The notes beneath the pieces were generated by a model that saw only the letters and a program-made list of their open reading frames with translations, made no database searches and was not told where the DNA came from. A stretch of DNA of 64,000 nucleotides from Escherichia coli (GTDB lineage: Bacteria; Pseudomonadota; Gammaproteobacteria; Enterobacterales; Enterobacteriaceae), in the NCBI RefSeq assembly GCF_030013205.1, contig NZ_CP122648.1; one strand, written 5' to 3'. Of the stretch, positions 1 through 34,865 are shown one piece after another. Position 1 is the stretch's first letter. The number at the start of each line of letters is the position of its first letter. The position numbers were made by a program, and so were the translations under genes.

Positions 1-63
1 AGTTCCGGCCAGCAGGTTATAAATTTTTACAGTACGTGATTGTTCACTCATTCTGAATGCCAT
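1..63 (-). CDS. tfa: Tail fibre assembly protein Tfa, N-terminal 21 codons only (gene runs off window start)
   Basis: Reverse complement of 1-63 translates [21 protein letters not shown], matching lambda-type Tfa N-terminus; ATG overlaps stf stop (TAATG). Confidence 0.7.
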   Translation of the reverse strand, partial: MAFRMSEQSRTVKIYNLLAGT

Positions 64-1724
64 TATGCAAGCCTCACAATATAATTAAATGCGATGTTTT
101 TAACGGTGTTTTCCGCGTTACCAGCAGCGTTAACGGTGATGGTGTGTCCATGTGAACCAATCGCAACAGAGTGCGTATGAGCGCCAATACCAACAGTGTG
201 TGCATGTGCCCCAGCACTTGTAGCGGTACCTGATACTGAGTGGGTATGTGCGCCAGAAGAAGGCACAGTTCCATTCCCCACCACCGTGCCACTTGATGCA
301 CCATCAAGCCAGTCGAAATTCATACCTCCACTGTTTGGTCTCCTTAATGGAACGGTATGTGTATGTGCGCCAGCACTATTTGCAGTACCAGATACATTGT
401 GGGTATGTGCACCAGTGTTATTCGTTGATTTAGTACCGTAATCAAACGACGATGTGGTTTTCGTACCCAAATCCGTACTGGATGCGCTGGCACTGTGGGT
501 GTGCGATTTAATGCCATCCTGTTCCTGAGACAATACGGCCCGACCACTGGCGGGTTTGCCCTTGATTGTCCAGCCGCGCATATCTGGAATAACACCAGAA
601 GGATAGGCAATAGCCAGTTTCGGATATGCTGCCTTATCAAACGTCTGCCCCTGCATGATTGCATAACCTGCAGGTGGCGTATCTGATGGCCACGGCAGCG
701 GAACACCTGGCGGAAACGCTTCAATATTTGCCGAGCCGTCAAATTTTACGCCGTTAATTGTCCTTGCCGTTTTCAGCTTTGTTGCTGTAGCAGCATTGCC
801 GGATAGTTCGCCAGAAAGACCACCGCTGAATGTCTGTTTCGCCGCCCATGTCTGAGCTTCGTCGATAATTGGCACACGTCTTGTCGTAATCGTGCGGCTT
901 CCCGGATTTCCTGAAATGCGAACCATAAAAAAGCGGTAATTCGCTTTACTTGCAGTGCTGCGCCATACATGCATTGAGCGCCCCGTACCGAAATCATCAC
1001 TCGGACCAACTGCGATGTTTATCAGGTTGCCATCAATGACGCCCCAGTCCATACCGTCGGGAATATTGGTCATGTTATCAAGCCGAACGGTTATCAGACT
1101 GCCCGGCACAAAATCGTAGGTCTGCCAGTCCAGGCTGGTGAGTTTTGCCACTGCGCCACCGATCCCCATATTCAGGGGCAACGAAAAGGAGTTATACACT
1201 TCTCGCCATTCGGTCCATGTGCTCCCGGCGTAGACGCGCTCAAAAGTGCGCCCCTGTGTGGTTTCTGATTTCCCTGTGGTTGTGTAACGCTGCCAGACAG
1301 ATACACCATCAAAACGCCTGATTACTTCCAGTATCCCAAGCAATGTCGCCCCAGCAGCGTCCAGCATCGGACCGTTTGTCGCCTTTCCTGTAACACTGTA
1401 AATACCGGGGTCGGTTAGAACATTCAAATCACCTTCGTAATAACGGCTCTCTGACTGATGACCGACTCTTAACCACGGTTCCCACTGCGGATTTGATGCA
1501 TCCCAGCTTGCCGCAAGGCAGCGAACGTACATATTCCCACGACGAGTGGTATAACGTTGCGTTCTTCCATAATTCCCGCCTTCGAGGATCTCAAGCGTCC
1601 CCTGAGCAAAGCCGCCTTCCTCTGGATAATTGCGTTCATATGAAGCTATAGCCGAGCTACTGTTACGCCATAAACCAAGATGCTCAGCGGCTCCAAGCGT
1701 ATTCAGGTCTATAGTCGTACTCAA
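63..1724 (-). CDS. Side tail fibre protein, lambda Stf-like C-terminal region
   Basis: 553-aa ORF; C-terminal half has [52 protein letters not shown], His-rich GAHTH/GAHAH boxes and ends NYIVRLA; followed by tfa. Confidence 0.8.
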
Positions 1725-2000
1725 AGGGCGGGTAGTTCAAGAAGCTGTTCCGGAGCGTTTGTTGATGATCCCGATCTGCATAAAAATATTCTTATTTGCT
1801 ATCCGTATGGTAACTATGAATATGACAATATTATCTATGTTGAAAAGAAAACTAATGCATTGGGCGTTGTTGTGACGTATGCACAGACTGCACGAGACGA
1901 TGCTGAATAAGATACTACAGAGATAGTCCACTTTTTTGTTTATTTGTCGGGATAAAAACAAATTACCCCGACTCACCATGTATTAATCTTCCGCTTTAAG

Positions 2001-2384
2001 TTAGTCTTGTAGCTGCGCTGTCCTGCTATGCAGCAAAGCGGCGTACTTTAATGCGTCCTGTGCTTTCTGGAATTTAAGTGCATAGTCAGTGGCGATTTTT
2101 TCCAGTTCAGCGATTCGGTTGTCTTTGGTTTCCAGCCAATCAAGTAGCGCCAATACTTCAGGATCCCCGACATCCAACACTGTTACGCGTGATTTTTCAT
2201 AATGTTCGTCGGCAAGAGTTCGACCAATTTTGAAATCTCCATCATCACCATAACCGGAGCAGCCATAAACAACCTGTGCTCCAGATATTCGCTGAATTGA
2301 CATTTCTTCGCCGCAAATAGGGCATTTTGGTACTGGTGCAGGTGAATAACGTTCACGTAATGCCTGATAGTTGATTTTGCTCAT
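2001..2384 (-). CDS. Hypothetical protein, CPxCG zinc-ribbon-like motif plus predicted C-terminal coiled coil
   Basis: 127-aa ORF with ATG start, same strand as stf; no recognisable family. Confidence 0.4.
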   Translation of the reverse strand: MSKINYQALRERYSPAPVPKCPICGEEMSIQRISGAQVVYGCSGYGDDGDFKIGRTLADEHYEKSRVTVLDVGDPEVLALLDWLETKDNRIAELEKIATDYALKFQKAQDALKYAALLHSRTAQLQD

Positions 2385-2447
2385 TAAGTCGCTCTTCTTG
2401 TTTATGTTCTGAGATGGAGATCAGGGCGAACTCGCCCTGACGTTGTG

Positions 2448-2876
2448 TTATTCAGGAAATAACGCCCTGATATTTCCGGCCATCTGACTGGTTATCTGTG
2501 CGGTTGGTACTGGCTGTGACAGGGGGCGTTCTGTCCTGGTTTGTGTCACTGATAACGCCTCATCGTCAGCCCATGCAGCCAGTCGGTAAGCCTCTGCCGG
2601 ATTCATTTTCAGAAGTGCCAGCCCGGCCAGAAAAGCCACGCGTTGGCCGCTTTTGCGGGCTTCCGGTGTAAGGCTGTCCAGCCAGGCGCATGCTTCGCTT
2701 TCGTTCTTGACGGCCGCAGGCTTCAGATAGAAACTTATCTGAGTAAGTCTGAATGTGTTCAGTTGCTGGATGCACTGGCTGAAAATCCCGATGAACGGCT
2801 GGCTGTCGAAATCCTTCTGTCGACCGGGGCGCGATGGGGCGAGGTAGCGGTACTGGAGCAGCGCCGTGTTCTTCAT
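2448..2876 (-). CDS. Hypothetical ORF, possibly an orphan 3' gene fragment; 5' part is antisense to integrase fragment
   Basis: 142-aa ORF; only the part below ~2700 lies outside the integrase fragment; no convincing RBS for internal starts. Confidence 0.2.
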   Translation of the reverse strand: MKNTALLQYRYLAPSRPGRQKDFDSQPFIGIFSQCIQQLNTFRLTQISFYLKPAAVKNESEACAWLDSLTPEARKSGQRVAFLAGLALLKMNPAEAYRLAAWADDEALSVTQTRTERPLSQPVPTAQITSQMAGNIRALFPE

Positions 2877-3221
2877 TGTCGAATCACTTTTTCAAAAACG
2901 AAGAACAGCAAAAACCGTACCGTTCCTATTTCTGAAAGCCTGTTTGAAAAGATCAAAAAACGGGGCGGGAAACTGGTGTTTCCGACGCTGGATTATCCAT
3001 TGGTTCGCGATGTCATCAAAACGGTCGCATCTGATGTTCCTGACGGCCAGGCTGTTCATGCGCTGCGCCACACCTTCGCCAGTCATTTCATGATGAACGG
3101 CGGCAATATTCTGACGCTCCAGAAAATTCTGGGGCACGCAAAGATTCAGACAACGATGATTTATGCCCATCTTGCGCCGGATTACTTGCAGGATGCGGTG
3201 AGATTTAATCCAATAGCTTGA
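2730..3221 (+). pseudogene. Tyrosine recombinase (P2 Int family), C-terminal catalytic domain only; N-terminal half absent
   Basis: Motifs LSTGARWGE, HALRHTFASHFM, LGHAKIQTTMIYAHL resemble P2 integrase C-terminal half; frames upstream of ~2700 show no integrase-like sequence. Confidence 0.65.
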
Positions 3222-3231
3222 AGGTAGGAAA

Positions 3232-3615
3232 ATGAAAGATATTGAACATTCAGGGGAAATGGAAAAGAAAAAACGGGAGTTTATTAAAAAACTGGAATCG
3301 ATAACGCCAAGAGAATTCTTCCGTTTTTTAAATGAAAAAAACGTCACTGTGGTTTGCCTTGGGTGCGGACTGAAAGATACCCAGATAACTGCCACTACAG
3401 GTAAGTTAAATCTCCAACAACTCCTGGATGGTGAAAAAGGGGAAGAGTTTATGACGTACTTCAGGCTTGAACCAGGTCACCCAGGTGATAGTGATGCGAA
3501 TTATTACTACAAATCTTTTTGTGAGAACTGCGGTTATATAACTATGCATGCAGTGACTCCGGTATTGAACTGGTTGGGATCGCAAAAAAACCAGGAAGGG
3601 TCAGGTGATGAATGA
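3232..3615 (+). CDS. Hypothetical protein with two CxxC pairs (zinc-ribbon-like), low-GC cargo gene
   Basis: 127-aa ORF, AGGTAGGA RBS 5-12 nt upstream of ATG, 10 nt after integrase stop; CLGC and CENC motifs. Confidence 0.55.
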   Translation: MKDIEHSGEMEKKKREFIKKLESITPREFFRFLNEKNVTVVCLGCGLKDTQITATTGKLNLQQLLDGEKGEEFMTYFRLEPGHPGDSDANYYYKSFCENCGYITMHAVTPVLNWLGSQKNQEGSGDE

Positions 3616-3907
3616 GTATACTTATATCACGGGTTTTTCCATTCCGTATCCAGGAGGAATTCAGGTGAGCAATCGCAGAAGTCAGGCAAGTCGTGATGAG
3701 TTCGCTCTTGATAGCCGTGTTGCACGAATGGAGTCTGATATCTCATACATCAAGAGAGATATTGAAGAGCTGAAGAGCGATCTCAAGGATGTGAGAGGCG
3801 ATATTGATAAGATACGCACAACAGATTTCAGGCTCATGTTTGGTGCGTTGATTACTACAGCCTTGGGGTTAGCTGGCTTAATGGCGAGAGGTTTTCACTG
3901 GATTTAA
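3605..3907 (+). CDS. Hypothetical small membrane protein: coiled coil plus C-terminal transmembrane anchor
   Basis: 99-100-aa ORF (GTG 3605 or ATG 3608) overlapping upstream stop (ATGAATGA); AGGAAGG RBS; hydrophobic C-terminus FGALITTALGLAGLMARGF. Confidence 0.55.
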   Translation: MMNEYTYITGFSIPYPGGIQVSNRRSQASRDEFALDSRVARMESDISYIKRDIEELKSDLKDVRGDIDKIRTTDFRLMFGALITTALGLAGLMARGFHWI

Positions 3908-4015
3908 GATCCACAAAGTGACCACATCTCTGTTATTTGTTGTGGTTGGCTGTGTTTTTGTGTGTCTGTAAGTCTTTGATAATTATCTAACTTATTGATT
4001 TTTGTTTGTGTTTAT

Positions 4016-4040
4016 GGCCGCTCTGCGGCCTTTTTTCTTT
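4016..4040 (+). terminator. Rho-independent terminator-like hairpin upstream of btuC
   Basis: GGCCGC-TCTG-CGGCC stem-loop followed by TTTTTTCTTTT. Confidence 0.45.
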
Positions 4041-4098
4041 TCACTGTCGAAGAGTCACCGTAAAATCAACGCCATGACACTTCAGCAGAACGGATACC

Positions 4099-5079
4099 AT
4101 GCTGACACTTGCCCGCCAACAACAGCGACAAAATATTCGCTGGTTATTATGCCTGTCAGTTTTGATGCTGCTGGCGCTTCTCTTAAGCCTTTGCGCCGGT
4201 GAACAATGGATCTCGCCAGGTGACTGGTTTTCTCCTCGAGGCGAACTGTTCGTCTGGCAGATTCGCCTGCCACGTACGCTGGCTGTATTGCTGGTTGGTG
4301 CGGCGTTGGCTATATCCGGCGCTGTAATGCAGGCGTTATTTGAAAATCCTCTGGCAGAACCTGGACTACTTGGCGTCTCTAATGGCGCAGGCGTGGGGCT
4401 TATCGCCGCGGTATTGCTTGGGCAAGGGCAACTCCCCAACTGGGCGCTGGGGCTGTGTGCGATTGCTGGCGCGCTTATCATCACTTTAATACTCTTACGT
4501 TTCGCCCGTCGTCATCTTTCGACCAGTCGGTTATTGCTGGCTGGCGTTGCATTAGGGATTATCTGTAGCGCACTAATGACGTGGGCTATCTACTTTTCCA
4601 CCTCTGTTGATTTACGTCAGCTGATGTACTGGATGATGGGCGGTTTTGGCGGCGTAGACTGGCGGCAAAGCTGGCTGATGCTGGCATTGATCCCCGTGTT
4701 GTTGTGGATCTGTTGTCAGTCCAGACCGATGAATATGTTAGCACTTGGCGAGATCTCGGCGCGGCAACTGGGTTTACCCCTGTGGTTCTGGCGCAATGTG
4801 CTGGTGGCAGCGACCGGCTGGATGGTTGGCGTCAGTGTGGCGTTGGCGGGTGCTATCGGCTTTATTGGTCTGGTGATCCCACATATTCTCCGGTTATGTG
4901 GTTTGACCGATCATCGCGTATTACTTCCCGGCTGCGCGCTGGCAGGGGCGAGCGCATTGCTGCTGGCCGATGTTGTAGCGCGCCTGGCATTAGCTGCTGC
5001 AGAGCTGCCTATTGGCGTGGTCACCGCAACGTTGGGTGCGCCGGTGTTTATCTGGTTATTGTTAAAAGCAGGACGTTAG
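4099..5079 (+). CDS. btuC: Vitamin B12 ABC transporter permease
   Basis: 326-aa ORF matching K-12 BtuC; btuCED order. Confidence 0.95.
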
Positions 5080-5141
5080 CCGCAAAAAGACGGTCTATGA
5101 TTAAAAGCTAAGATTTTTACTGACCACACCCAGGAGAAACG

Positions 5142-5693
5142 ATGCAAGATTCCATTCTGACGACCGTAGTGAAAGATATCGACGGTGAAGTGACCACGCT
5201 GGAGAAGTACGCCGGTAATGTGCTGTTGATTGTCAATGTCGCCTCAAAGTGTGGCTTAACGCCGCAATATGAGCAGTTGGAGAATATTCAGAAAGCCTGG
5301 GCCGATCGTGGTTTTGTGGTGCTGGGATTCCCGTGCAACCAGTTTCTGGAGCAAGAACCGGGCAGCGATGAAGAGATTAAAACTTACTGCACCACTACAT
5401 GGGGGGTGACGTTCCCGATGTTCAGTAAGATTGAAGTTAATGGTGAAGGACGCCATCCGCTGTATCAAAAATTGATTGCCGCAGCGCCGACCGCAGTCGC
5501 GCCGGAAGAGAGCGGATTCTATGCCCGTATGGTCAGCAAAGGTCGTGCACCGCTGTACCCTGATGATATCTTATGGAATTTTGAGAAATTTTTAGTTGGC
5601 AGGGACGGATTGGTCATCCAGCGTTTTTCCCCGGATATGACGCCGGAAGATCCCATTGTGATGGAAAGCATTAAACTGGCGTTGGCAAAATAA
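5142..5693 (+). CDS. btuE: Thioredoxin/glutathione peroxidase
   Basis: 183-aa ORF, glutathione peroxidase family, between btuC and btuD. Confidence 0.95.
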
Positions 5694-6442
5694 TGTCTAT
5701 TGTGATGCAGTTACAGGATGTTGCGGAGTCTACCCGCCTGGGGCCGCTTTCTGGCGAGGTTCGGGCTGGGGAGATCCTGCACCTGGTGGGGCCGAATGGC
5801 GCGGGTAAGAGTACCTTACTGGCGCGAATGGCCGGAATGACCAGCGGTAAGGGAAGCATTCAGTTCGCGGGGCAACCACTGGAAGCATGGTCCGCAACAA
5901 AACTCGCGCTGCATCGCGCCTATCTTTCACAACAACAGACGCCACCGTTTGCAATGCCGGTCTGGCACTACCTGACACTGCATCAGCACGATAAAACGCG
6001 TACCGAACTACTGAATGATGTCGCAGGGGCGCTGGCTCTTGATGACAAACTCGGACGTAGCACCAAGCAACTTTCCGGCGGCGAATGGCAACGCGTACGT
6101 CTTGCTGCGGTGGTGCTGCAAATCACACCACAAGCCAATCCCGCAGGCCAATTGCTGCTTCTTGATGAGCCGATGAACAGTCTTGATGTTGCGCAACAAA
6201 GTGCATTAGACAAAATTCTGAGCGCGCTGTGTCAGCAAGGACTGGCGATTGTGATGAGCAGTCACGATCTCAACCATACATTGCGTCATGCGCATCGGGC
6301 GTGGTTGCTAAAAGGTGGAAAAATGCTGGCCAGTGGACGCAGGGAAGAGGTGCTCACGCCGCCAAATCTGGCGCAGGCCTATGGGATGAATTTTCGCCGT
6401 CTGGATATCGAAGGTCACAGAATGCTGATTTCGACCATCTGA
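5693..6442 (+). CDS. btuD: Vitamin B12 ABC transporter ATP-binding protein
   Basis: 249-aa ORF with Walker [10 protein letters not shown]; start overlaps btuE stop. Confidence 0.95.
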
Positions 6443-6519
6443 TTTCATTAGTATCTTGAAAATCGGGTAATTACGACGCTAAATTAATGCAAGAATAAAA
6501 AACAGAGGAACCGTACGGA

Positions 6520-6984
6520 ATGCGTTTCTGCCTTATTTTGATCACAGCACTGTTTCTGGCCGGGTGTAGCCACCATAAAGCACCGCCGCCAAATGCCAGA
6601 CTTTCTGATTCGATTACCGTTATTGCCGGTTTGAACGACCAGCTACAGAGCTGGCATGGCACGCCGTATCGTTATGGTGGCATGACGCGGCGCGGTGTGG
6701 ACTGTTCGGGGTTTGTGGTTGTGACGATGCGCGATCGTTTCGATTTGCAGCTGCCCCGAGAAACTAAAGAACAAGCCTCTATCGGCACGCAAATTGATAA
6801 AGACGAGTTGCTGCCAGGTGACCTGGTCTTTTTCAAAACGGGCTCCGGACAAAATGGTTTGCATGTAGGTATTTACGATACCAACAACCAATTTATCCAC
6901 GCCTCTACCAGCAAGGGAGTGATGCGTTCCTCACTTGATAATGTCTATTGGCAGAAAAATTTCTGGCAGGCGAGACGAATCTAG
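6520..6984 (+). CDS. nlpC: NlpC/P60 family lipoprotein (putative peptidoglycan endopeptidase)
   Basis: 154-aa ORF, lipobox LAGC, NlpC/P60 Cys motif. Confidence 0.9.
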   Translation: MRFCLILITALFLAGCSHHKAPPPNARLSDSITVIAGLNDQLQSWHGTPYRYGGMTRRGVDCSGFVVVTMRDRFDLQLPRETKEQASIGTQIDKDELLPGDLVFFKTGSGQNGLHVGIYDTNNQFIHASTSKGVMRSSLDNVYWQKNFWQARRI

Positions 6985-7230
6985 TATGTCGAAAAATTGA
7001 CGGCGATGATACATCGCCGTCAATTTACTCCAGAATACGGTAGTATTTTGCAGACAAAAATTCCGTAAATGGATTATTCGTTTATAATCAGGATAATCTA
7101 AAAAAAGGACCCCTGAAAAAGTGGTTAACATGGAACAAATGAAAGTTACTCCTTCTGTAATTGTTATGTCTTATGGCCTCATCCCTTTTAGCCGGATACT
7201 GAAAAACATCCTTCGAGAGGGACGGTTACC

Positions 7231-7944
7231 ATGAAGATTTTTTTGGAGAATCTTTATCATTCTGATTGCTATTTCCTGCCGATAAGAGATAACCAGCAAG
7301 ACCTTGTCGGCGTTGAGTTAATTACCCATTTCTCCAGTGAAGATGGTACGGTTCGTATCCCGACGAGTCGGGTTATAGCGCAACTTACCGAGGAGCAACA
7401 TTGGCAATTATTTTCAGAGCAGTTGGAATTACTAAAATCATGCCAACACTTTTTTATTCAACATAAACTCTTTGCCTGGCTTAATTTAACGCCACAAGTG
7501 GCTACTTTATTATTAGACAGGGATAATTACGCAGGCGAACTATTAAAATATCCGTTTATTGAACTGTTGATTAATGAGAATTACCCGCATCTCGATGAAG
7601 GAAAAGATAATCGCGATCTTTTTTCCTTATCGCAAATGTATCCCCTTGTGTTAGGTAATTTGGGCGCAGGCAATAGCACAATGAAAGCGGTTTTTGATGG
7701 TCTTTTCACCCGCGTCATGCTGGATAAAAGTTTTATTCAGCAACAAATCACGCATCGCTCCTTCGAACCGTTTATTCGTGCGATCCAGGCGCAAATTTCC
7801 CCATGTTGCAATTGCATCATCGCGGGGGGCATTGATACGCCAGAAATAATGGCACAGATTACCCCCTTTGATTTCCATGCTCTCCAGGGATGCCTGTGGC
7901 CTGCCGTTCCCATAAATCAGATAACGACGTTGGTTCAGCGATAA
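7231..7944 (+). CDS. ydiV: Anti-FlhD4C2 factor, degenerate EAL-like protein
   Basis: 237-aa ORF matching K-12 YdiV; synteny. Confidence 0.9.
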   Translation: MKIFLENLYHSDCYFLPIRDNQQDLVGVELITHFSSEDGTVRIPTSRVIAQLTEEQHWQLFSEQLELLKSCQHFFIQHKLFAWLNLTPQVATLLLDRDNYAGELLKYPFIELLINENYPHLDEGKDNRDLFSLSQMYPLVLGNLGAGNSTMKAVFDGLFTRVMLDKSFIQQQITHRSFEPFIRAIQAQISPCCNCIIAGGIDTPEIMAQITPFDFHALQGCLWPAVPINQITTLVQR

Positions 7945-7967
7945 CCCTCCTGTTTGCTGGTGTTTAA

Positions 7968-9443
<1,476 letters not shown>

Positions 9444-9446
9444 AGG

Positions 9447-9638
9447 CTACTTGGTCAACAGCAGCTTGCCAGCCTGAGTTTTACGGAGCAGATATTCTTG
9501 CCCGTCATGATCGATAATCAGTTTGCCATCCGGACCTAACAGTGTCTGGCTGGTAATTCGCCGAATGGGCTGTGGGGAAGCGGTCTTGTGATTGGCATCC
9601 GTTTCAGGCGTGAGTTTTCTGCTATCCGTATAACGCAT
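9447..9638 (-). CDS. ydiE: HemP-like small protein
   Basis: 63-aa protein from internal ATG of 72-aa ORF (MRYTDSRK...), matches K-12 YdiE. Confidence 0.8.
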
Positions 9639-9769
9639 AAAGATTAATAATAATTGATATAACAATGATTCTTATTATCAATATTATGGCGGGCCAGAGC
9701 AAGCAGTAATTTGTTGAGAAGACAACAAGTTGCGCAGAAATGCCCATTCCGTCAGGAATGGGCACGCAT

Positions 9770-10816
9770 TCAGAAACGGGTATCAACTGCAGAGGCGAGT
9801 TTTTCGACCAGGCGTTCGGTATCTTCCCAGCCCAGACACGGGTCGGTAATCGATTGACCGTAAGTGAGCGGCTGACCGCCGGCGATTTTTTGCGTTCCTT
9901 CGCGCAGGAAACTTTCCGCCATAATTCCAGCAATCGCCGTAGAGCCATTGCGGATTTGCTGACAAATATCCTCACAAACTTCTAACTGGCGACGGTGCTG
10001 CTTCTGGCAGTTACCGTGGCTGAAATCCACCACCAGATGTTCAGGTAAATCAAACTCGTGCAGCGTATCGCAGGCTGCGGCGATATCATCGGCATGATAA
10101 TTCGGTTTTTTGCCGCCACGCATAATAATGTGGCCATACGGGTTGCCGCTGGTCTGATAGATGGTCATCTGACCATTTTTGTCTGGCGAGAGGAACATAT
10201 GGCTGGCGCGGGCTGCGCGGATAGCATCCACGGCAATCCGCGTGTTGCCATCGGTACCATTTTTAAAACCTACCGGACAGGAGAGTGCCGAAGCCATTTC
10301 ACGGTGGATCTGACTTTCGGTAGTACGTGCGCCAATCGCACCCCAACTGATTAAATCAGCAATAAACTGACCGGTCACCATATCGAGGAACTCAGTCGCG
10401 GTAGGGACGCCCAGCTCATTTACCTGTAAAAGTAATTTGCGCGCCAGCTCCAGACCGTGATTTACCCGATAGCTGCCGTTTAAATCTGGATCGGAGATTA
10501 GCCCTTTCCAGCCGACAACAGTTCGTGGTTTTTCAAAATAGGTGCGCATTACGATTTCCAGCCGTGACTGGTACTGGTTGCGCAGCGACTGCAGACGGGT
10601 GGCGTACTCCATTGCAGCGGTGAGATCGTGGATCGAGCAGGGGCCAATAATGACCAACAGTCGCTTATCTTCACCATTCAGTATTTTTTCAATTCTGCGG
10701 CGGGAGTCGGTGACATGGGTGGCGACGCCAGGCGTTACGGGATACCGTAGCGCGAGTTCGGCGGGCGTTACCAGGCTCTCAATACGCGCAGTACGGAGTT
10801 CGTCAGTTCTGTTCAT
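9770..10816 (-). CDS. aroH: DAHP synthase, Trp-sensitive
   Basis: 348-aa ORF matching K-12 AroH. Confidence 0.95.
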   Translation of the reverse strand: MNRTDELRTARIESLVTPAELALRYPVTPGVATHVTDSRRRIEKILNGEDKRLLVIIGPCSIHDLTAAMEYATRLQSLRNQYQSRLEIVMRTYFEKPRTVVGWKGLISDPDLNGSYRVNHGLELARKLLLQVNELGVPTATEFLDMVTGQFIADLISWGAIGARTTESQIHREMASALSCPVGFKNGTDGNTRIAVDAIRAARASHMFLSPDKNGQMTIYQTSGNPYGHIIMRGGKKPNYHADDIAAACDTLHEFDLPEHLVVDFSHGNCQKQHRRQLEVCEDICQQIRNGSTAIAGIMAESFLREGTQKIAGGQPLTYGQSITDPCLGWEDTERLVEKLASAVDTRF

Positions 10817-10961
10817 TACAAGTCTCAGAAATTTGTTGCTTCTACGGCAGGACTACCGGGAAGTGATGCGCATCACGATAAACCAATCGCAGCTGATTTC
10901 AAGTGCGAGGTGTGTCACACCTCGCCGGGTGGTTAGCATGATAACAAAAAAACAAGCTAAT

Positions 10962-10979
10962 GCACTAGTTCTCTAGTAC
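10962..10979. promoter_or_regulatory. TrpR operator-like palindrome in aroH upstream region
   Basis: GCACTAGTTCTCTAGTAC, near-perfect inverted repeat of TrpR-box type upstream of aroH. Confidence 0.5.
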
Positions 10980-11806
10980 ATTCGACGGCTAAGGCCCATG
11001 ATATCGAGGATCTTGGTGGCAATCTCTTCTACCGAATAATTGGTACTGTTAATCCACGGGATCTGATTTTTACGGTACAAGGCTTCTACTTCCGCGACTT
11101 CCATCCTGCACTGACGAAGCGAGGCATAGCGACTGTTCTCCCGACGTTCTTCGCGAATCGCCGCCAGACGTTCCGGGTCGATAGTCAGGCCGAACAATTT
11201 ATGCTGAAGCGGTTTGAGCGACGCGGGTAGCACAAGATTATCCATATCGTCGGCAATAAAGGGGTAGTTTGCCGCGCGGATACCAAATTGCATTGCCAGA
11301 TACAGACTGGTGGGGGTTTTACCACAGCGAGAAACGCCGAGCAGGATCACCTGAGCCTGGTCCAGATTGCGTAACGAAATGCCATCATCGTGGGCGAGGG
11401 TGTAATCAATCGCAGCAATGCGCGCATCATATTTATTGAGATTATTAGGGTTAAGGCCATGGGTACGATGAGCAATCGGCGTTGGATCCAGTTTCATCTC
11501 TTGTTGTAGCGGGGCAACCAGCGCCTGAACGATATCCTGGCAAAAGCCTTCACTTTGCAAGATGATGGCGCGAATCTCCGGCAACACGATGGAGTAGAAG
11601 ACCAGCGGGCGCACACCTGTCTGGTGATAAATTGCGTCAATCTGATCCTTCACTGCCCGTGCACGGCTCTCATTTTCGACAAACGGCAGCGTAATGCTGC
11701 TGATAGTGACGGGAAATTGTGACATTACTGCGTGTCCTAATACCTCCGCAGTTATTGCCGTACCATCAGAAATATAAAAAACGTGGCGATCAACAGCATT
11801 ATCCAT
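10973..11806 (-). CDS. ppsR: PEP synthetase regulatory protein (bifunctional kinase/phosphotransferase)
   Basis: 277-aa ORF matching K-12 PpsR/YdiA; divergent from ppsA. Confidence 0.93.
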
Positions 11807-12138
11807 TTTGTTCTTCCCGTGATGCAGACATAATTCTATGAAAGCATAAATTAAAAACGCACAGAAGCGTAGAACGTTATGTCTGGTTTATAAAATGAAC
11901 CTTCAATTTTATTTTTTATGAAAACAGTATTTCATTTTTACGGTTTCGTTTATACCGATGGTTTATGTGGAAATTGTCGAAGAGAGCAGATTTGCGCAAC
12001 GCTGGGATCAGTCTTAAAAAGTAAAAAAATATATTTGCTTGAACGATTCACCGTTTTTTTCATCCGGTTAAATATGCAAAGATAAATGCGCAGAAATGTG
12101 TTTCTCAAACCGTTCATTTATCACAAAAGGATTGTTCG

Positions 12139-14517
12139 ATGTCCAACAATGGCTCGTCACCGCTGGTGCTTTGGTATAACCAACTCGGCATGAATGATGT
12201 AGACAGGGTTGGGGGCAAAAATGCCTCCCTGGGTGAAATGATTACTAACCTTTCCGGAATGGGTGTTTCCGTTCCGAATGGTTTCGCCACAACCGCCGAC
12301 GCGTTTAACCAGTTTCTGGACCAAAGCGGCGTAAACCAGCGCATTTATGAACTGCTGGATAAAACGGATATTGACGATGTTACCCAGCTTGCGAAAGCGG
12401 GCGCGCAAATCCGCCAGTGGATTATCGACACTCCCTTCCAGCCTGAGCTGGAAAACGCCATCCGCGAAGCCTATGCACAGCTTTCCGCCGATGACGAAAA
12501 CGCCTCGTTTGCGGTGCGTTCCTCCGCTACTGCAGAAGATATGCCGGACGCTTCTTTTGCCGGTCAGCAGGAAACTTTCCTCAACGTTCAGGGTTTTGAC
12601 GCCGTTCTCGTGGCAGTGAAACATGTATTTGCTTCTCTGTTTAACGATCGCGCCATCTCTTATCGTATGCACCAGGGTTACGATCACCGTGGCGTGGCGC
12701 TCTCCGCCGGTGTTCAGCGGATGGTGCGCTCCGACCTCGCATCTTCTGGCGTGATGTTCTCCATTGATACCGAATCCGGCTTTGACCAGGTGGTGTTTAT
12801 CACTTCCGCATGGGGCCTTGGTGAAATGGTCGTGCAGGGCGCGGTTAACCCGGATGAGTTTTACGTGCATAAACCGACACTGGCGGCGAATCGCCCGGCT
12901 ATCGTGCGCCGCACCATGGGGTCGAAAAAAATCCGCATGGTTTACGCGCCGACCCAGGAGCACGGCAAGCAGGTTAAAATCGAAGACGTACCGCAGGAAC
13001 AGCGTGACATCTTCTCGCTGACCAACGAAGAAGTGCAGGAACTGGCAAAACAGGCCGTACAAATTGAGAAACACTACGGTCGCCCAATGGATATTGAGTG
13101 GGCGAAAGATGGCCACACCGGCAAACTGTTCATTGTGCAGGCGCGTCCGGAAACCGTGCGCTCACGCGGTCAGGTCATGGAGCGTTATACGCTGCATTCA
13201 CAGGGTAAGATTATCGCCGAAGGCCGTGCTATCGGTCATCGCATCGGCGCGGGTCCGGTGAAAGTCATCCATGACATCAGCGAAATGAACCGCATCGAAC
13301 CTGGCGACGTGCTGGTTACTGACATGACCGACCCGGACTGGGAACCGATCATGAAGAAAGCATCTGCCATCGTCACCAACCGTGGGGGGCGTACCTGTCA
13401 CGCGGCGATCATCGCTCGTGAACTCGGCATTCCGGCGGTAGTGGGCTGTGGTGATGCAACAGAACGGATGAAAGACGGTGAGAACGTCACTGTTTCTTGT
13501 GCCGAAGGTGATACCGGTTATGTCTATGCGGAGTTGCTGGAATTTAGCGTGAAAAGCTCCAGCGTAGAAACGATGCCGGATCTGCCGTTGAAAGTAATGA
13601 TGAACGTCGGTAACCCGGACCGTGCTTTCGACTTCGCCTGCCTGCCGAACGAAGGCGTGGGCCTTGCACGTCTGGAATTTATCATCAACCGTATGATTGG
13701 CGTCCACCCACGCGCACTGCTTGAGTTTGACGATCAGGAACCGCAGTTGCAAAACGAAATCCGCGAGATGATGAAAGGTTTTGATTCTCCGCGTGAATTT
13801 TACGTTGGTCGTCTGACTGAAGGGATCGCGACGCTGGGTGCCGCGTTTTATCCGAAGCGCGTCATTGTCCGTCTCTCTGATTTTAAATCGAACGAATATG
13901 CCAACCTGGTCGGTGGTGAGCGTTACGAGCCAGATGAAGAGAACCCGATGCTCGGCTTCCGTGGCGCGGGCCGCTATGTTTCCGACAGCTTCCGCGACTG
14001 CTTCGCGCTGGAGTGTGAAGCAGTGAAACGTGTGCGCAACGATATGGGGCTGACCAACGTTGAGATCATGATCCCGTTCGTGCGTACCGTAGATCAGGCG
14101 AAAGCGGTGGTTGACGAATTGGCGCGTCAGGGGCTGAAACGTGGTGAGAACGGGCTGAAAATCATCATGATGTGTGAAATTCCGTCCAACGCCTTGCTGG
14201 CAGAGCAGTTCCTCGAATATTTCGACGGCTTCTCAATTGGCTCAAACGACATGACACAGCTGGCGCTCGGTCTGGACCGTGACTCTGGCGTGGTGTCTGA
14301 ACTGTTCGATGAGCGCAACGATGCGGTGAAAGCACTGCTGTCGATGGCGATTCGTGCCGCGAAGAAACAGGGCAAATATGTCGGGATTTGCGGTCAGGGT
14401 CCATCCGACCACGAAGACTTTGCTGCATGGTTGATGGAAGAGGGGATCGATAGCCTGTCTCTGAACCCGGACACCGTGGTGCAAACCTGGTTAAGCCTAG
14501 CTGAACTGAAGAAATAA
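12139..14517 (+). CDS. ppsA: Phosphoenolpyruvate synthase
   Basis: 792-aa ORF matching K-12 PpsA. Confidence 0.97.
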
Positions 14518-24596: not shown

Positions 24597-25463
24597 TCAG
24601 GCACCGAACCCCATGACCTGTTTAACATATTCCAGAGGGAAATCTTTGCCAGTCCATAACGTGAACTGTTCAGCCCCTTGCCACAACAACATGCCGTATC
24701 CATCAATCGTTTTGCAACCAGCTTGTTGCGCCTGCTGCAATAACTTCGTCATATGCGGGTTATACACGCATTCAGTGACCAGAAGTCCCGGATGTAACAG
24801 ACTGATATCATTAACCAATGATTCATTCTCAAGGGGTTTCATGCCCACTTTTGTGCCATTGGTTAAAATGTCGGCGGAAGCCAGGGCTTCAGCAAAGGCT
24901 TGCTGATCGGCGAGATCGGTAACCGTGACGACACAATCGGTGTTTTCGTTAACCCGCTGCGCGAAGGCGAGGGCTTTATCGAAGAACTCATCCCGACGGT
25001 TAAAGAGTTTAATTTCTTTTAAACCTTCAATTGCCCCCTGCGCGCCAATCGCCGTTGAGGCACCTCCGGCCCCTAACAGCACCATCGTTTTGCCTTTGAT
25101 ATCAAAACCGCTCTCTTTAATGGCGCGAATATGGCCCGTGCCGTCGGTGTTATAGCCACGCAGATAGCCATCATCATTAACGATGGTGTTGATGGCCCCC
25201 ACCAGTTTGGCCGCTGGCGTTAATTCATCAACATATTCACACGCCAGTTGTTTGTTCGGCATTGATACACCAGTTCCGCGCATTTTGAGGGCTTTTAATC
25301 CTTCAATTGCTCCGGGAAAACTATCGTTATCCACTTCAAAGGCCATATAGGTAAATGGCAATCCCGCTTTTTCTAAGGCTTTATTCTGCATTTCAGGCGA
25401 TAAACTGTGGCGGATAGGATAAGCCATCAGCCCAATCAATTCGTATTTTGCGGTAACATCCAT
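24597..25463 (-). CDS. ydiB: Quinate/shikimate dehydrogenase
   Basis: 288-aa ORF matching K-12 YdiB. Confidence 0.95.
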
Positions 25464-25474
25464 AATTAACTCCT

Positions 25475-26740
25475 TTAACCTCTATGCTTAATTGTGTTTA
25501 ACCGGGTGCTAAATTTACGCTCGCCAAACCGCACATCATTTTCAGGAATAATGAAAACGCGGTAATAGCGGATAAAGACAATAATTGCGGTAATCAGGGC
25601 CAGCAGCGAGAAAGTAAAATCGAGAGCAATGATATATTGCAGGCCGATGTTCGACAGATAACCGGTAATCAGCGGAATAACAAAGTTAGCCAGTCCACCC
25701 ATCATCATATAAATACTGGTGACTTTGGCTTTGCTTTTGGGGAAAAACTCTGACATGACCGAAACGCCGAGCTGTAAAATGCCGCCAGCTGCTGAGAAAC
25801 CGATAACAAAGGCTCCGGCATTACACACCAGTGGAGAAGGGTACAGGTAGATAATGGCTGCTGTTATTGTTGCCAGTGCAGAGTTAAATACATTAGCCCA
25901 GATGGGCCGGACCATTTTTTTCAGTAGTGCGGCAAAAATAAAGACACAGACCAACGAGCCCATACTGTAATAAGAGATGGTTTTTAATGCTTCAGCTTCT
26001 GACATACCAGCAAAAGCCATCGCATATTTGGGCATCCACACCACAATCACATAAAAGGTCGAGAATGCGGCTACACCGAACAGTACCGATGAAACACCTT
26101 CCAGCCAGACTAACGGTTTGCTGTTCATTTGCGGTAATTCATGAGCTACGCTGGCGTCCACCAACTGGCTGGGGAATTTGCTTTTCAACAGCATCAGTGT
26201 GATCAGTACAAACAGAATACCCGGAATAATCAGCCCATAGCCGTACCAGATGTTATTGAGCAACATATAGCTCACCAGCATTGGGTAGAACATTTGCCCG
26301 AATGACACCATCGCTTTAACCAGTATGACCGCCGAACCAGAGGCTTTCGGAAAGCATTCCATGAGCGCGGGGTAGCCACCCGTATCCAGCGCTGAGTTAG
26401 CGATACCTACGCACACTGCCAGACAGTAGGCGAGAGTTAAATTCGGGCAAGCAGGGATACCAAAGAAGAATAGCAGATACATTATTACTGCCATTAATAT
26501 TACCGCCCGACGACCAAACTTATCGGAGAACACACCGAAGAATAAAATACTGATCAATCGCCCCAAACCGATACCGGAAATTAAATAGGCAATGCCCGCG
26601 TTGTCAGTGGAAAACTTTTCTGCCAGAGATGACATATTTTGGGCAAGCGTAATAACACTAATGCCGTGCAGGAAATAGCTGAAGTAAATACAAAGAACAG
26701 CCAGGATAAATGGCGTGCTGAAAGCCTTATTTTGAGACAT
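25475..26740 (-). CDS. ydiN: MFS transporter
   Basis: 421-aa protein (ORF extends 2 codons further to 26746); polytopic membrane protein. Confidence 0.9.
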
Positions 26741-30565: not shown

Positions 30566-33500
30566 ATGATTCCACAGATTTCCCAGGCACCCGGCGTCGT
30601 TCAACTGGTGCTTAATTTTTTGCAAGAGCTGGAGCAACAGGGGTTTACCGGCGATACGGCGACAAGTTATGCCGATCGTCTGACAATGTCGACCGACAAC
30701 AGTATTTACCAACTTCTCCCCGATGCGGTGGTATTTCCGCGTTCAACCGCAGATGTGGCGCTGATCGCCCGTCTTGCCGCGCAGGAACGCTATTCATCGC
30801 TGATCTTTACCCCCCGCGGCGGCGGCACCGGCACTAACGGTCAGGCGCTCAACCAGGGGATTATTGTTGATATGTCCCGCCATATGAACCGCATCATCGA
30901 AATTAACCCTGAAGAGGGCTGGGTGCGCGTTGAGGCCGGGGTGATAAAAGATCAACTCAATCAGTACCTGAAACCGTTCGGCTACTTTTTTGCGCCGGAA
31001 CTTTCGACCAGCAACCGGGCAACGCTCGGTGGGATGATCAATACCGATGCATCCGGTCAGGGATCGCTGGTCTATGGCAAAACGTCAGATCACGTACTTG
31101 GCGTACGCGCGGTGTTGTTGGGGGGCGATATTCTCGATACGCAACCTTTACCCGTCGAGCTGGCGGAAACGCTGGGTAAATCCAATACCACAATCGGGCG
31201 AATTTATAACACGGTTTATCAACGTTGCCGTCAGCAACGCCAGTTAATCATCGACAACTTCCCCAAACTTAACCGCTTTCTTACCGGTTACGATCTGCGT
31301 CATGTCTTTAACGACGAGATGACCGAGTTTGACCTGACGCGCATTCTGACGGGTTCAGAAGGGACGCTGGCCTTTATTACCGAAGCGCGGCTGGATATTA
31401 CGCCCTTGCCTAAAGTGCGCCGTCTGGTGAACGTCAAATATGACTCTTTTGACTCCGCGCTGCGTAACGCGCCGTTTATGGTTGAGGCGCGGGCGCTTTC
31501 GGTAGAGACGGTGGACTCAAAAGTGCTGAATCTGGCGCGGGAAGATATTGTCTGGCATTCCGTCAGCGAGTTGATTACCGATGTGCCTGACAAAGAAATG
31601 CTCGGGCTGAACATTGTGGAATTTGCTGGTGATGATGAGACGCTGATTGATGAGCGAGTAAATGCACTCTGTGCGCGGCTGGATGAACTTATCGCCAGTC
31701 AGCAAGCAGGTGTGATCGGCTGGCAGGTATGCAGTGAGCTGGCAGGTGTTGAGCGTATTTATGCGATGCGCAAAAAAGCTGTCGGCCTGCTCGGTAATGC
31801 CAAAGGAGCAGCCAAGCCAATTCCGTTTGCTGAGGATACCTGCGTACCGCCGGAACATCTGGCAGATTATATTGCTGAATTTCGCGCGCTGCTCGACAGC
31901 CACGGCTTAAGCTACGGTATGTTTGGTCACGTCGATGCAGGTGTCCTGCACGTCCGTCCGGCACTGGATATGTGCGATCCGCAACAAGAGATTTTGATGA
32001 AGCAAATCTCTGATGATGTAGTGGCGCTTACCGCGAAATACGGTGGTTTGTTGTGGGGCGAGCACGGCAAAGGTTTTCGCGCCGAATACAGCCCGGCGTT
32101 TTTCGGTGAGGAACTTTTTGCAGAACTGCGTAAAGTGAAAGCGGCATTTGACCCGCATAACCGACTCAACCCAGGGAAGATTTGCCCGCCAGAAGGTCTC
32201 GATGCACCGATGATGAAAGTGGACGCGGTGAAGCGTGGCACATATGATCGACAGATCCCCATTGCGGTACGCCAGCAGTGGCGTGGTGCGATGGAGTGTA
32301 ACGGCAACGGTTTATGCTTCAACTTTGATGCCCGCAGTCCGATGTGCCCGTCGATGAAGATTACCCAGAACCGGATTCATTCACCGAAAGGGCGCGCAAC
32401 GCTGGTGCGTGAATGGCTGCGTTTGTTGGCAGATCGCGGTGTTGACCCAGTCAAACTGGAACAAGAGCTGCCTGAATCAGGCGTCAGTTTGCGGACGTTA
32501 ATTGCCCGCACGCGCAATAGCTGGCATGCGAATAAAGGCGAATATGACTTCTCCCACGAAGTCAAAGAGGCGATGTCGGGCTGTCTGGCCTGTAAAGCTT
32601 GTTCGACCCAGTGCCCAATCAAAATTGACGTGCCTGAGTTTCGTTCTCGCTTTCTGCAACTCTATCACACCCGTTATTTGCGCCCGCTGCGCGACCACCT
32701 CGTCGCCACGGTCGAGAGCTACGCACCGCTGATGGCACGCGCGCCGAAAACCTTTAACTTCTTCATTAACCAGCCGCTGGTGCGCAAACTCTCGGAAAAA
32801 CATATCGGCATGGTTGATTTGCCGCTGCTGTCGGTCCCCTCGCTACAACAACAAATGGTGGGGCATCGCTCGGCAAACATGACGCTGGAACAGCTTGAAG
32901 CTCTCAGTGCAGAGCAGAAAGCGCGCACGGTGCTGGTGGTGCAGGACCCCTTTACCAGCTATTACGATGCGCAAGTGGTGGCGGATTTTGTCCGTCTGGT
33001 CGAAAAATTAGGTTTCCAGCCGGTGTTACTGCCATTTTCGCCAAATGGCAAAGCCCAGCATATCAAAGGCTTTCTTAATCGTTTTGCGAAGACGGCGAAA
33101 AAGACGGCGGATTTCCTCAACCGTGTGGCGAAGCTGGGGATGCCAATGGTGGGCGTCGATCCGGCGCTGGTACTTTGTTATCGCGATGAATATAAACTGG
33201 CGCTGGGCGAGGAACGTGGCGAGTTTAACGTCTTACTGGCGAATGAATGGCTGGCAAGCGCACTTGACTCACAGCCAGTGGCTACAGTCAGCGGTGAATC
33301 ATGGTATTTCTTTGGTCACTGTACCGAAGTTACCGCTTTGCCGGGCGCGCCAGCACAATGGGCCGCGATATTTGCCCGTTTTGGCGCGAAACTGGAAAAT
33401 GTCAGCGTGGGTTGCTGCGGCATGGCAGGGACTTACGGACATGAAGCGAAAAACCATAAAAATTCGCTCGGGATCTATGAGTTATCCTGGCATCAGGCGA

Positions 33501-33622
33501 TGCAGCGACTGCCGCGTAACCGCTGTCTGGCGACCGGATATTCCTGCCGTAGTCAGGTCAAACGGGTTGAAGGCACGGGGGTACGCCATCCTGTGCAGGC
33601 TTTACTGGAGATTATTAAATGA
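30566..33622 (+). CDS. ydiJ: FAD-linked oxidase with Fe-S domain (reported D-2-hydroxyglutarate dehydrogenase)
   Basis: 1018-aa ORF; N-terminal FAD-binding domain, C-terminal Cys clusters. Confidence 0.93.
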   Translation: MIPQISQAPGVVQLVLNFLQELEQQGFTGDTATSYADRLTMSTDNSIYQLLPDAVVFPRSTADVALIARLAAQERYSSLIFTPRGGGTGTNGQALNQGIIVDMSRHMNRIIEINPEEGWVRVEAGVIKDQLNQYLKPFGYFFAPELSTSNRATLGGMINTDASGQGSLVYGKTSDHVLGVRAVLLGGDILDTQPLPVELAETLGKSNTTIGRIYNTVYQRCRQQRQLIIDNFPKLNRFLTGYDLRHVFNDEMTEFDLTRILTGSEGTLAFITEARLDITPLPKVRRLVNVKYDSFDSALRNAPFMVEARALSVETVDSKVLNLAREDIVWHSVSELITDVPDKEMLGLNIVEFAGDDETLIDERVNALCARLDELIASQQAGVIGWQVCSELAGVERIYAMRKKAVGLLGNAKGAAKPIPFAEDTCVPPEHLADYIAEFRALLDSHGLSYGMFGHVDAGVLHVRPALDMCDPQQEILMKQISDDVVALTAKYGGLLWGEHGKGFRAEYSPAFFGEELFAELRKVKAAFDPHNRLNPGKICPPEGLDAPMMKVDAVKRGTYDRQIPIAVRQQWRGAMECNGNGLCFNFDARSPMCPSMKITQNRIHSPKGRATLVREWLRLLADRGVDPVKLEQELPESGVSLRTLIARTRNSWHANKGEYDFSHEVKEAMSGCLACKACSTQCPIKIDVPEFRSRFLQLYHTRYLRPLRDHLVATVESYAPLMARAPKTFNFFINQPLVRKLSEKHIGMVDLPLLSVPSLQQQMVGHRSANMTLEQLEALSAEQKARTVLVVQDPFTSYYDAQVVADFVRLVEKLGFQPVLLPFSPNGKAQHIKGFLNRFAKTAKKTADFLNRVAKLGMPMVGVDPALVLCYRDEYKLALGEERGEFNVLLANEWLASALDSQPVATVSGESWYFFGHCTEVTALPGAPAQWAAIFARFGAKLENVSVGCCGMAGTYGHEAKNHKNSLGIYELSWHQAMQRLPRNRCLATGYSCRSQVKRVEGTGVRHPVQALLEIIK

Positions 33623-34029
33623 TATGGAAACGAAAAATCACCCTGGAAGCACTGAATGCTATGGGTGAAGGAAACATGGTGGGGTTGCTGGATATTCGCT
33701 TTGAACATATTGGTGATGACACCCTTGAAGCGACAATGCCAGTAGACTCGCGGACAAAGCAGCCTTTCGGGTTGCTGCATGGAGGAGCATCCGTGGTACT
33801 GGCCGAAAGTATCGGTTCCGTTGCCGGTTATTTATGTACCGAAGGTGAGCAAAAAGTGGTTGGTCTGGAAATCAATGCTAACCACGTCCGCTCGGCACGA
33901 GAAGGGCGGGTGCGCGGCGTATGCAAACCGTTGCATCTCGGTTCGCGTCACCAGGTCTGGCAGATTGAAATCTTCGATGAGAAAGGGCGTTTGTGCTGTT
34001 CGTCACGATTAACGACCGCCATTTTGTGA
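33619..34029 (+). CDS. menI: 1,4-dihydroxy-2-naphthoyl-CoA thioesterase (hotdog fold)
   Basis: 136-aa ORF; start overlaps ydiJ stop. Confidence 0.92.
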   Translation: MIWKRKITLEALNAMGEGNMVGLLDIRFEHIGDDTLEATMPVDSRTKQPFGLLHGGASVVLAESIGSVAGYLCTEGEQKVVGLEINANHVRSAREGRVRGVCKPLHLGSRHQVWQIEIFDEKGRLCCSSRLTTAIL

Positions 34030-34128
34030 CGTTGTCACCAGAAAAGTGTGACGCATATTGCTTTTGGTCATTATCTGCACAGTAAACGGTGGTATACTGT
34101 GCAGGTCTTGTCTAAAAGCGAGGATGCT

Positions 34129-34317
34129 ATGTCTACTCAACTTGATCCCACCCAGCTGGCCATTGAATTTTTACGCCGTGACCAGAGCAATCTTTCACCT
34201 GCCCAATATCTCAAACGTCTGAAACAACTAGAACTTGAATTTGCTGACCTGCTTACTCTCTCTTCTGCTGAATTAAAAGAAGAAATCTACTTTGCCTGGC
34301 GTCTGGGCGTGCATTGA
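34129..34317 (+). CDS. ydiH: Uncharacterised small protein YdiH
   Basis: 62-aa protein from internal ATG (MSTQLDPTQ) of 89-aa ORF. Confidence 0.8.
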   Translation: MSTQLDPTQLAIEFLRRDQSNLSPAQYLKRLKQLELEFADLLTLSSAELKEEIYFAWRLGVH

Positions 34318-34510
34318 TTCTGACTTAATGCCGCAATTTCGCCAAATCGACCTGGATTAACCTCCGTCCAGGTTCGATAACCTTCTTAATACTGCTTATC
34401 TACCCGCCTGATATTGTTCAAAAATAATACTAATCGCAGTTTGTGTTAAAACGGCGGGTTAGCTTTATGAGATTATTCTTATCGCCCCTTCAAGAGCTAA
34501 GCCACTGAGA

Positions 34511-34583: not shown

Positions 34584-34670
34584 TCTGAACGCTGCACTTT
34601 TTTACCTATCTCTTAAATAGTCATTTTCAATACAACTTTTTCTTTTTCATCACAGCCTTAATGCTCCTTA

Positions 34671-34820: not shown

Positions 34821-34865
34821 CTAACATGCTGTTATACGCTGAAAGCGATGAAGTGAGGTAAATCG

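Follow-up and report, generated by a model that had tools for sequence, protein, structure and literature searches.

A probable internal-deletion scar between two 5'-truncated genes of a P2-like prophage remnant beside btuC in Escherichia coli

Prophages are eroded to cryptic remnants by microhomology-mediated, RecA-independent deletions, examples of which are e14, Rac and Qin of Escherichia coli K-12. P2-like prophages (Peduoviridae) of E. coli are likewise encountered in cryptic form, and their gpA-gpQ interval, the tin/old or 'TO' locus of P2, constitutes a hotspot that was shown by Rousset et al. 2022 (PMC9122126) to act as an anti-phage reservoir. An arrangement of StbA, StbB and Ead_Ea22 is listed in the hotspot table of the same paper.

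The locus described here is situated in a window of 64,000 nucleotides of E. coli chromosome (NZ_CP122648.1), in which btuC, btuE and btuD occupy positions 4099-6442 and phage-derived genes are located to their left. Its resemblance to the erosion of e14, Rac and Qin is close: direct repeats of 4-5 bp are present at the parental breakpoints, one copy is kept, truncated genes are left abutting each other, and successive events are nested inside a clonal lineage. No difference in kind separates these cases, the present instance being specific to a pig-associated E. coli lineage. In gene order, near-identical sequence and chromosomal site the window agrees with an almost complete P2-like prophage, while it differs from an intact one in that the head, lysis, baseplate, replication and immunity modules are missing by way of two deletions. 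Of the P2 hotspot, only the 59-codon stump of a single hotspot gene is retained here.

Based on these findings, and with a probability of approximately 95%, we conclude that the AT-rich region at positions 1725-2000 is the scar left where a P2-like prophage beside btuC underwent an internal deletion, and that two 5'-truncated genes, both of them pseudogenes, stand head-to-head there. The feature is ordinary prophage decay and has already been recognised as such by public annotation.

The AT-rich spacer and the truncated tail-fibre gene

The initial annotation had described an AT-rich stretch of ~275 bp between a tail-fibre gene (stf) and the next minus-strand ORF, and this description was confirmed. 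The spacer (1725-2000) measures 276 bp, runs from the 5' end of the minus-strand fibre ORF (1724) to the stop codon of an ead/Ea22-like ORF (2001-2003) and has a GC content of 0.384, as compared to 0.507 in the fibre ORF (63-1724) and 0.495 over the entire window, in which only 3.2% of all 276-bp intervals are equally AT-rich. The features of the spacer and its surroundings are as follows.

63-1735, minus strand: remaining 3' part of a tail-fibre gene of the P2 gpH type, with codons 330-885 of 885 intact
63-1724, minus strand: the 553-aa fibre ORF, with tail-collar and fibre-repeat domains
1680-1730, plus strand: fortuitous in-frame extension, antisense to the fibre gene, which supplies an ATG at 1680 and gives a chimeric 76-aa ORF
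1725-1730 (to 1735 if the microhomology is included): residual fibre-derived sequence at the left edge of the spacer
1731-1735: junction 1, GGTAG, a 5-bp microhomology common to both parental sequences (overlap of blastn blocks), one copy kept
1731-1910, plus strand: 3' remnant of a cargo gene of the phrog_1416 membrane-protein family, residues 118-176 and stop codon
1911-1998, plus strand: native 3' flank of the cargo gene, the sole truly non-coding part of the spacer
2001-2384, minus strand: ead/Ea22-like gene, convergent with the cargo-gene remnant (PF13935, E = 3.3e-29)
beyond the ead/Ea22-like ORF, minus strand: ORF with a Plasmid_stab_B domain match
2643-3221, plus strand: ORF of an integrase C-terminal fragment
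2736-2739: junction 2, TATC, a 4-bp microhomology, scar of a 7,130-bp deletion relative to the F344 prophage
2740-3221, plus strand: 3' fragment of a P2-type tyrosine integrase gene (PF00589, E = 8.2e-21), next to the prophage end near btuC

The spacer itself consists mostly of the last 59 codons of an AT-rich cargo gene, followed by the 3' flank of that gene. Neither remnant possesses a start codon with a ribosome-binding site (RBS) or a promoter, from which it would follow that both are pseudogenes and that the region 1725-2000 has no present function; the remnants are also likely to be transcriptionally silent. Both are already flagged in RefSeq by PGAP as N-terminally truncated pseudogenes, so that their status is known: in K_EC180, one of the 14 genomes that carry junction 1, the fibre gene is annotated as 'incomplete, missing N-terminus', while the equivalent of 1728-1910 on the plus strand is a pseudogene annotated as 'hypothetical protein, incomplete, missing N-terminus'.

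The nature of the fibre ORF is evident from comparison with its full-length counterpart in the prophage of strain F344, a gene of 885 codons (positions 10433-13090 of the F344 prophage locus) in whose product PF12571 covers residues 1-151 and PF03406 residues 170-210. Neither of these two domains was found in the window's fibre ORF. The TTG at 1724, taken as the stf start in the initial annotation, corresponds to an internal codon, Leu333, of the 885-aa fibre and is no gene start; four gpH-derived codons lie upstream of it, after which the frame encounters a TGA in cargo-derived sequence, and no Shine-Dalgarno motif precedes the TTG.

The initial annotation had alternatively suggested that the AT-rich stretch is simply the promoter region of stf, and a promoter or regulatory role is a reading to which its position directly 5' of the fibre ORF and its GC content of 0.38 lend some appeal. 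The fibre ORF is, however, cut at this very point and lacks its 329 N-terminal codons, and what now lies upstream, brought there by deletion, is the 3' end of a gene on the other strand. In the intact prophage the fibre gene forms part of a co-oriented tail run (V-W-J-I-H-tfa) in which gene I ends ~10 bp upstream, leaving no room for a promoter belonging to the fibre gene itself. Furthermore, a search of both strands of 1400-2600 for sigma-70-like sites (-35 and -10 hexamers at a spacing of 16-18 nt) returned none, as against 2.0 expected from shuffled sequences, under a strict consensus that weak or non-sigma-70 promoters would escape; nor does a genuine gene start accompany the stretch. Given the truncated fibre, the spacing to gene I and the absence of sigma-70-like sites, the promoter reading fails and is considered highly improbable. 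The 553-aa 'stf' ORF is thus only part of a gene, and no regulatory meaning attaches to its apparent start codon or to the region upstream.

A hairpin (1946-1972, GTCGGG...CCCGAC) is present in the 3' flank of the cargo gene. Its fold energies are -10.1 and -15.4 kcal/mol on the plus and minus strand, respectively, and it is kept in phage 434 by means of one compensatory change from G:C to A:T. The possibility that it represents a conserved RNA element was entertained and dropped: the hairpin is absent downstream of the divergent members of the family examined (Salmonella, Enterobacter and two read-archive assemblies), no U-tract or T-run accompanies it on either strand, as an intrinsic (Rho-independent) terminator would require, no terminator-like site was identified in 1911-2000 and there was no Rfam match in the spacer, all of which characterises it as a local cassette feature. 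Within 1500-2500 the only Rfam match was to RAGATH-17 at 2353-2438, outside the spacer, and at 25 bits (E = 0.98), where the gathering score is 102, it is at chance level.

At its right edge the spacer meets the ead/Ea22-like gene, which covers positions 1-111 of the 139 of the PF13935 profile and is thus truncated at its C-terminus. PGAP labels it 'missing C-terminus' in deleted and undeleted prophages alike, and since the truncation is also present in intact prophages it is an older event.

Two deletions relative to the F344 prophage

The prophage of F344 (NZ_OY754421.1) served as reference. In this genome the two halves of the junction are found on the same strand, 13 kb apart, within a nearly complete P2-like prophage beside btuC that encodes the portal, the terminase, the GPO scaffold, a P2-family capsid protein, gpV, gpW, gpJ and gpI, gpA and an integrase, and the full gene set is present between both breakpoints. 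It occupies the same chromosomal site as the prophage of the window's lineage (K_EC180) and has the same flanking genes, including an identical WP_021565649.1 and btuCED. When the first 7 kb of the window were compared to the F344 locus by blastn, three collinear blocks were obtained. By their shared order and sequence in the gpH fibre with tfa, the cos-proximal gpA-gpQ region and the P2-type integrase at the prophage end, they identify a P2-like prophage remnant.

Block 1: window 1-1735 = F344 locus 10371-12105, 100% identity
Block 2: window 1731-2739 = F344 locus 25186-26194, 100% identity
Block 3: window 2736-7000 = F344 locus 33321-37585, 99.4% identity

The window and the F344 prophage are therefore two deletions apart. 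The first, of 13,085 bp relative to F344, took codons 1-329 of the fibre gene at one end and codons 1-117 of the cargo gene at the other. Lost in between, and with them the baseplate, head and packaging functions, were genes I, J, W and V, the genes for tail completion/virion morphogenesis and for lysis, genes X, L, M, N, O, P and Q, and the stretch that separates Q from the cargo gene. In P2, cos is located in the interval that corresponds to the one between Q and the cargo gene. The second, of 7,130 bp, took the 5' part of a StbB-like gene, parM, the gene of the replication endonuclease gpA, small early genes, the immunity region with a repressor-like HTH gene, and the 5' portion of the gene for the integrase; what is left of the latter (2740-3221) aligns collinearly with its 933-bp counterpart in F344. 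The window consequently does not have the whole set of structural, lysis and replication modules that would be expected of an inducible, functional prophage: as compared to F344 it has lost Q, P, O, N, M and L, the genes for lysis, V, W, J and I, gpA and the immunity region.

The microhomologies at the two junctions bear on how the ends may have been joined. Microhomology of at least 5 bp is expected at a random junction with a probability of only ~0.005, and of at least 4 bp with a probability of ~0.016, and for this reason the 5-bp and 4-bp microhomologies fit RecA-independent illegitimate recombination; they suggest that joining occurred by RecA-independent slippage or by microhomology-mediated joining. 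The ancestral prophage would have matched that of F344 nearly to the base, with the fibre gene H on the minus strand and the small cargo gene on the plus strand 13 kb apart, the latter sited in the cos-proximal gpA-gpQ variable region. A single illegitimate recombination between two GGTAG pentamers would have removed everything in between and left two 5'-truncated genes abutting head-to-head, so that the spacer runs into the convergent and already truncated ead/Ea22-like gene. A later deletion of 7.1 kb (junction at 2736-2739) or, alternatively, insertion of IS1 into the spacer then brought further decay in sub-lineages. F344 is a contemporary relative and not the literal ancestor in this scheme, a caveat that is minor given 100% identity over 2.7 kb.

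A site-specific or transposon-mediated rearrangement, by a Pin/Gin-type invertase or an IS-mediated adjacent deletion, is very unlikely to account for the junction: invertases do rearrange fibre genes in Mu, in P1 and in elements of the e14 type and IS1 does occur nearby in three related genomes, yet the two flanks keep the order and the strand that they have in F344, which indicates a simple deletion and no inversion, the breakpoints have just 5 bp in common, neither a recombinase crossover site nor an IS terminal repeat is visible at the parental breakpoints in F344, no IS sequence or IS end is found at the window junction, and the IS1 copies are ~140 bp away and confined to a sub-lineage.

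The cargo-gene remnant and the family of its parent

With the deletion reading in place, the plus-strand ORF at 1680-1910 can be understood. The initial annotation had reported this ORF, which is present and encodes 76 aa with a translation exactly as quoted there, and had described it as possessing neither an ATG nor an RBS. The latter part holds, as no Shine-Dalgarno motif was found upstream of the ATG at 1680, where the sequence reads GCCATAAACCAAGATG, whereas the former does not, as the ORF opens with that very ATG; it is the coding-like part, 1731-1910, that has no start codon of its own. The suggestion that the fragment is the 3' remnant of a displaced gene proved correct. Positions 1731-1910 contain the last 59 codons and the stop codon of a 176-aa phage cargo gene, are 100% identical to positions 25186-25365 of the F344 locus and to the corresponding sequence of strain 14EC020, and belong in F344 to a complete parent ORF of 176 aa (24835-25365 of the locus, 2286834-2287364 of NZ_OY754421.1). 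The parent gene is also intact in related P2-like prophages, and homologues are found in phages 434, mEp332 and 2B8 as well as in Salmonella and Enterobacter prophages.

The coding-like composition that had been attributed to the fragment is likewise borne out by this identity to the closing codons of a full-length gene in other genomes and by the pattern of substitution. Comparison of the 59 retained codons with the phage 434 allele by the Nei-Gojobori method gave dN = 0.074 and dS = 1.284 (omega = 0.057), and the whole parent gene gave a dN/dS of 0.101 against the same allele; the synonymous excess in the proposed frame is that of a sequence of protein-coding origin. A homologue search and a test of synonymous constraint had been set as checks on the remnant reading, which survives both, since homologues were found and the frame is strongly constrained. 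The remnant itself appears to be a pseudogene from which the start codon and all three transmembrane (TM) helices have been deleted. An antisense ORF of 80 aa (1737-1979, minus strand) lies exactly opposite the remnant, with its stop codon (TGA) immediately ahead of the fibre codons; it was rejected as spurious, the constraint favouring the plus-strand frame.

One could envisage that the chimeric ORF 1680-1910 is a functional new small gene, whose 76-aa product would represent a free C-terminal beta-domain devoid of its anchor. The ORF is uninterrupted, has an ATG and keeps most of the conserved C-terminal domain, including both conserved cysteines. Its first 17 codons are nevertheless antisense fibre sequence, neither an RBS nor a promoter-like site precedes it, the predicted beta-domain is without its first strands (residues 105-116), and the product would lack the signal or TM segments that are needed to reach the periplasm. 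IS1 lies inside the 951-bp match in three genomes that carry junction 1, the copy in ETEC6333 being located just past the stop codon of the fragment; the PGAP call is pseudogene; and all 14 copies of the region are 100% identical, with no sign of selection since the deletion. We consequently regard a functional small gene as a most improbable explanation, and retain the reading of 1731-1910 as a dead remnant.

The parent ORF matches phrog_1416, a family annotated as of unknown function, with E = 1.6e-45 over residues 90-175, and its membership of the family is supported by this profile match. Full-length, the parent protein is 79.5% identical to CPT_434B_36, which is annotated in phage 434 as 'putative membrane protein'. 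At the DNA level the homology with the 434 cassette (76%) starts upstream of the gene and continues, through the 3' flank and the hairpin, to the equivalent of window position ~1998. The phage 434 gene is complete, whereas the window copy represents its last third only; the 434 gene is also differently placed, in the xis-exo region of a lambdoid phage, where it is oriented against its neighbours, and not in a P2 hotspot.

A word-indexed search identified 61 homologous clusters, every source name among them being E. coli, Shigella, E. marmotae, Salmonella or Enterobacter, and an exhaustive search yielded 58 representatives at 50% identity; the family is narrow, and its typical length is 167-200 aa. 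An alignment and an AlphaFold2 model (pLDDT 80.7) place helices at residues 5-31, 38-61 and 69-101 and strands over residues 105-171, and two invariant cysteines are present in the C-terminal domain (positions 123 and 140). This full architecture, consisting of a start, three N-terminal TM helices and a C-terminal beta-domain, is not present in the window, where only residues 118-176 are kept. The positive-inside rule suggests an N-in, C-out topology with a periplasmic domain that is possibly disulfide-bonded, and in the model this beta-domain is predicted to be a small, OB-like beta-barrel with two conserved cysteines.

Searches of the parent protein against Pfam, NCBIfam and PADLOC gave nothing above threshold (in Pfam sub-threshold matches only), and with the full-length protein PADLOC-DB v2 returned no family at E <= 1. 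Foldseek searches of the AlphaFold2 model gave no significant match in the PDB, where the best hits were OB-fold-like (lowest E = 0.028), or in BFVD, where the best hit, at E = 0.0085, was unnamed.

Members of the family occur in the P2 cos-proximal hotspot (in E. coli, in Salmonella and in one member named Enterobacter hormaechei) and among lambdoid early genes. In all seven of the divergent P2-like loci examined (Salmonella genomes, one Enterobacter-type member and read-archive assemblies) the gene lies just after the portal gene, between portal and gpA, and converges on the gpA operon. On the P2 map, old is likewise oriented so as to converge on the gpA operon. Features in common with the P2 defence hotspot are the neighbouring StbA/StbB/Ead_Ea22 arrangement and the location of the parent gene between gpA and gpQ, where it points towards the gpA operon; a difference is that the parent protein matches no PADLOC defence model. 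As the family recurs in the gpA-gpQ anti-phage hotspot, a role in defence or superinfection exclusion is plausible, and the parent, which is under strong purifying selection, may tentatively be viewed as a superinfection-exclusion or anti-phage membrane protein, albeit one with no match in PADLOC, Pfam, the PDB or BFVD, although we consider this proposal rather less probable than its negation. No record of the parent protein having been tested for defence was found. Even if the proposal is true the window copy is dead either way, and the window merely points to the family. Attention is thereby drawn to a small, conserved and uncharacterised family of membrane proteins, phrog_1416, that is habitual in the P2 gpA-gpQ hotspot.

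Two further observations concern this family. PGAP labels the parent gene as 'frameshifted' in F344 (24790-25365) and in 14EC020 (positions 4605-5180 of the locus extracted from it). The core of the gene starts with MKKDS (F344 locus 24835) and continues as an uninterrupted ORF of 176 aa, and lengths of 173-176 aa are usual in Salmonella and Enterobacter; the ORF is probably intact and the label probably derives from reference models that are over-extended at the N-terminus. A protein of 3,074 aa (P0102) contains 11 tandem stretches that match positions 125-164 of the family profile, i.e. the C-terminal beta-domain, which hints that this small domain is a reusable extracellular beta module. 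A Pfam scan of P0102 produced sub-threshold matches only (trimeric-autotransporter Trp-ring and filamin), with no lead on function.

Distribution among genomes and neighbouring genes

The distribution of the junctions was assessed by megablast of window positions 1500-2450 against 5,426 complete E. coli genomes. An end-to-end match at 100% identity was obtained in 14 genomes, all of them from pig or wild boar and either ETEC or O139:H1, while in ~500 further genomes the match does not start until query base 232 (window position 1731), where the cargo side begins. In this second class of genomes the sequence is the 3' end of a gene of ~576 bp situated between the portal and ead/Ea22-like genes of a P2-like prophage. 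A reciprocal search with positions 1100-1790 retrieved 280+ genomes in which matches on the fibre side end at 1735.

Junction 2 was identified in seven of the 5,426 genomes, all of which are among the 14 that carry junction 1. ETEC6333 (NZ_CP122600.1) has junction 1, retains parM and gpA and does not have the second deletion. IS1 was found inside the region matched by 1500-2450 in three pig strains (ETEC6333, ETEC6334 and O139:H1 P15-25); in ETEC6333, the only one of the three examined, it falls within the region 2052-2746 of the extracted locus, equivalent to window ~1911-2012, between the stop codon of the fragment and the ead/Ea22-like gene. Because junction 2 is nested in the set with junction 1 and ETEC6333 keeps parM and gpA, the sequences indicate that deletion 1 came first and that deletion 2 and IS1 are later, alternative steps in sub-lineages. 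GGTAG at 1731-1735, TATC at 2736-2739 and the alternative IS1 insertion provide clean, ordered lineage markers within the pig-associated ETEC/O139:H1 clade.

A number of observations were made in the neighbourhood of the scar. Junction 2 joins the StbB-like remnant to the 3' fragment of the P2-type integrase, and the ORFs that run across it (2448-2876, minus strand, and 2643-3221, plus strand) are chimeric artefacts. Between the integrase fragment and btuC are two overlapping small hypothetical genes on the plus strand (3232-3615 and 3605-3907), both conserved in F344, which could be end-of-prophage cargo; the product of the former has 127 aa and Cys-rich, zinc-ribbon-like motifs, and that of the latter has 100 aa, a coiled coil, a C-terminal TM segment and a weak XhlA-like match.

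In the Salmonella assembly GCA_005632195.1 (positions 3530-5522 of the extracted locus) an independent P2-like remnant was observed. Its gpV spike gene is shortened and directly adjoins the cargo region near cos, so that the genes for head, lysis and packaging were lost by a separate, analogous deletion.

Finally, a block of genes comprising sheath, tube, E, tape measure and U is located on the strand opposite to H and tfa, converging on tfa, both in F344 (3533-9852) and in K_EC180, where it occupies positions 1-1983 of the extracted locus, just left of the start of the window. A serine acetyltransferase gene lies between this block and tfa, IS66 flanks the block in F344, and gpD and ogr were not seen near it in either F344 or K_EC180. 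Such an orientation relative to H and tfa is not the canonical P2 order and suggests an older inversion or rearrangement of the block, common to the F344 and K_EC180 lineages.
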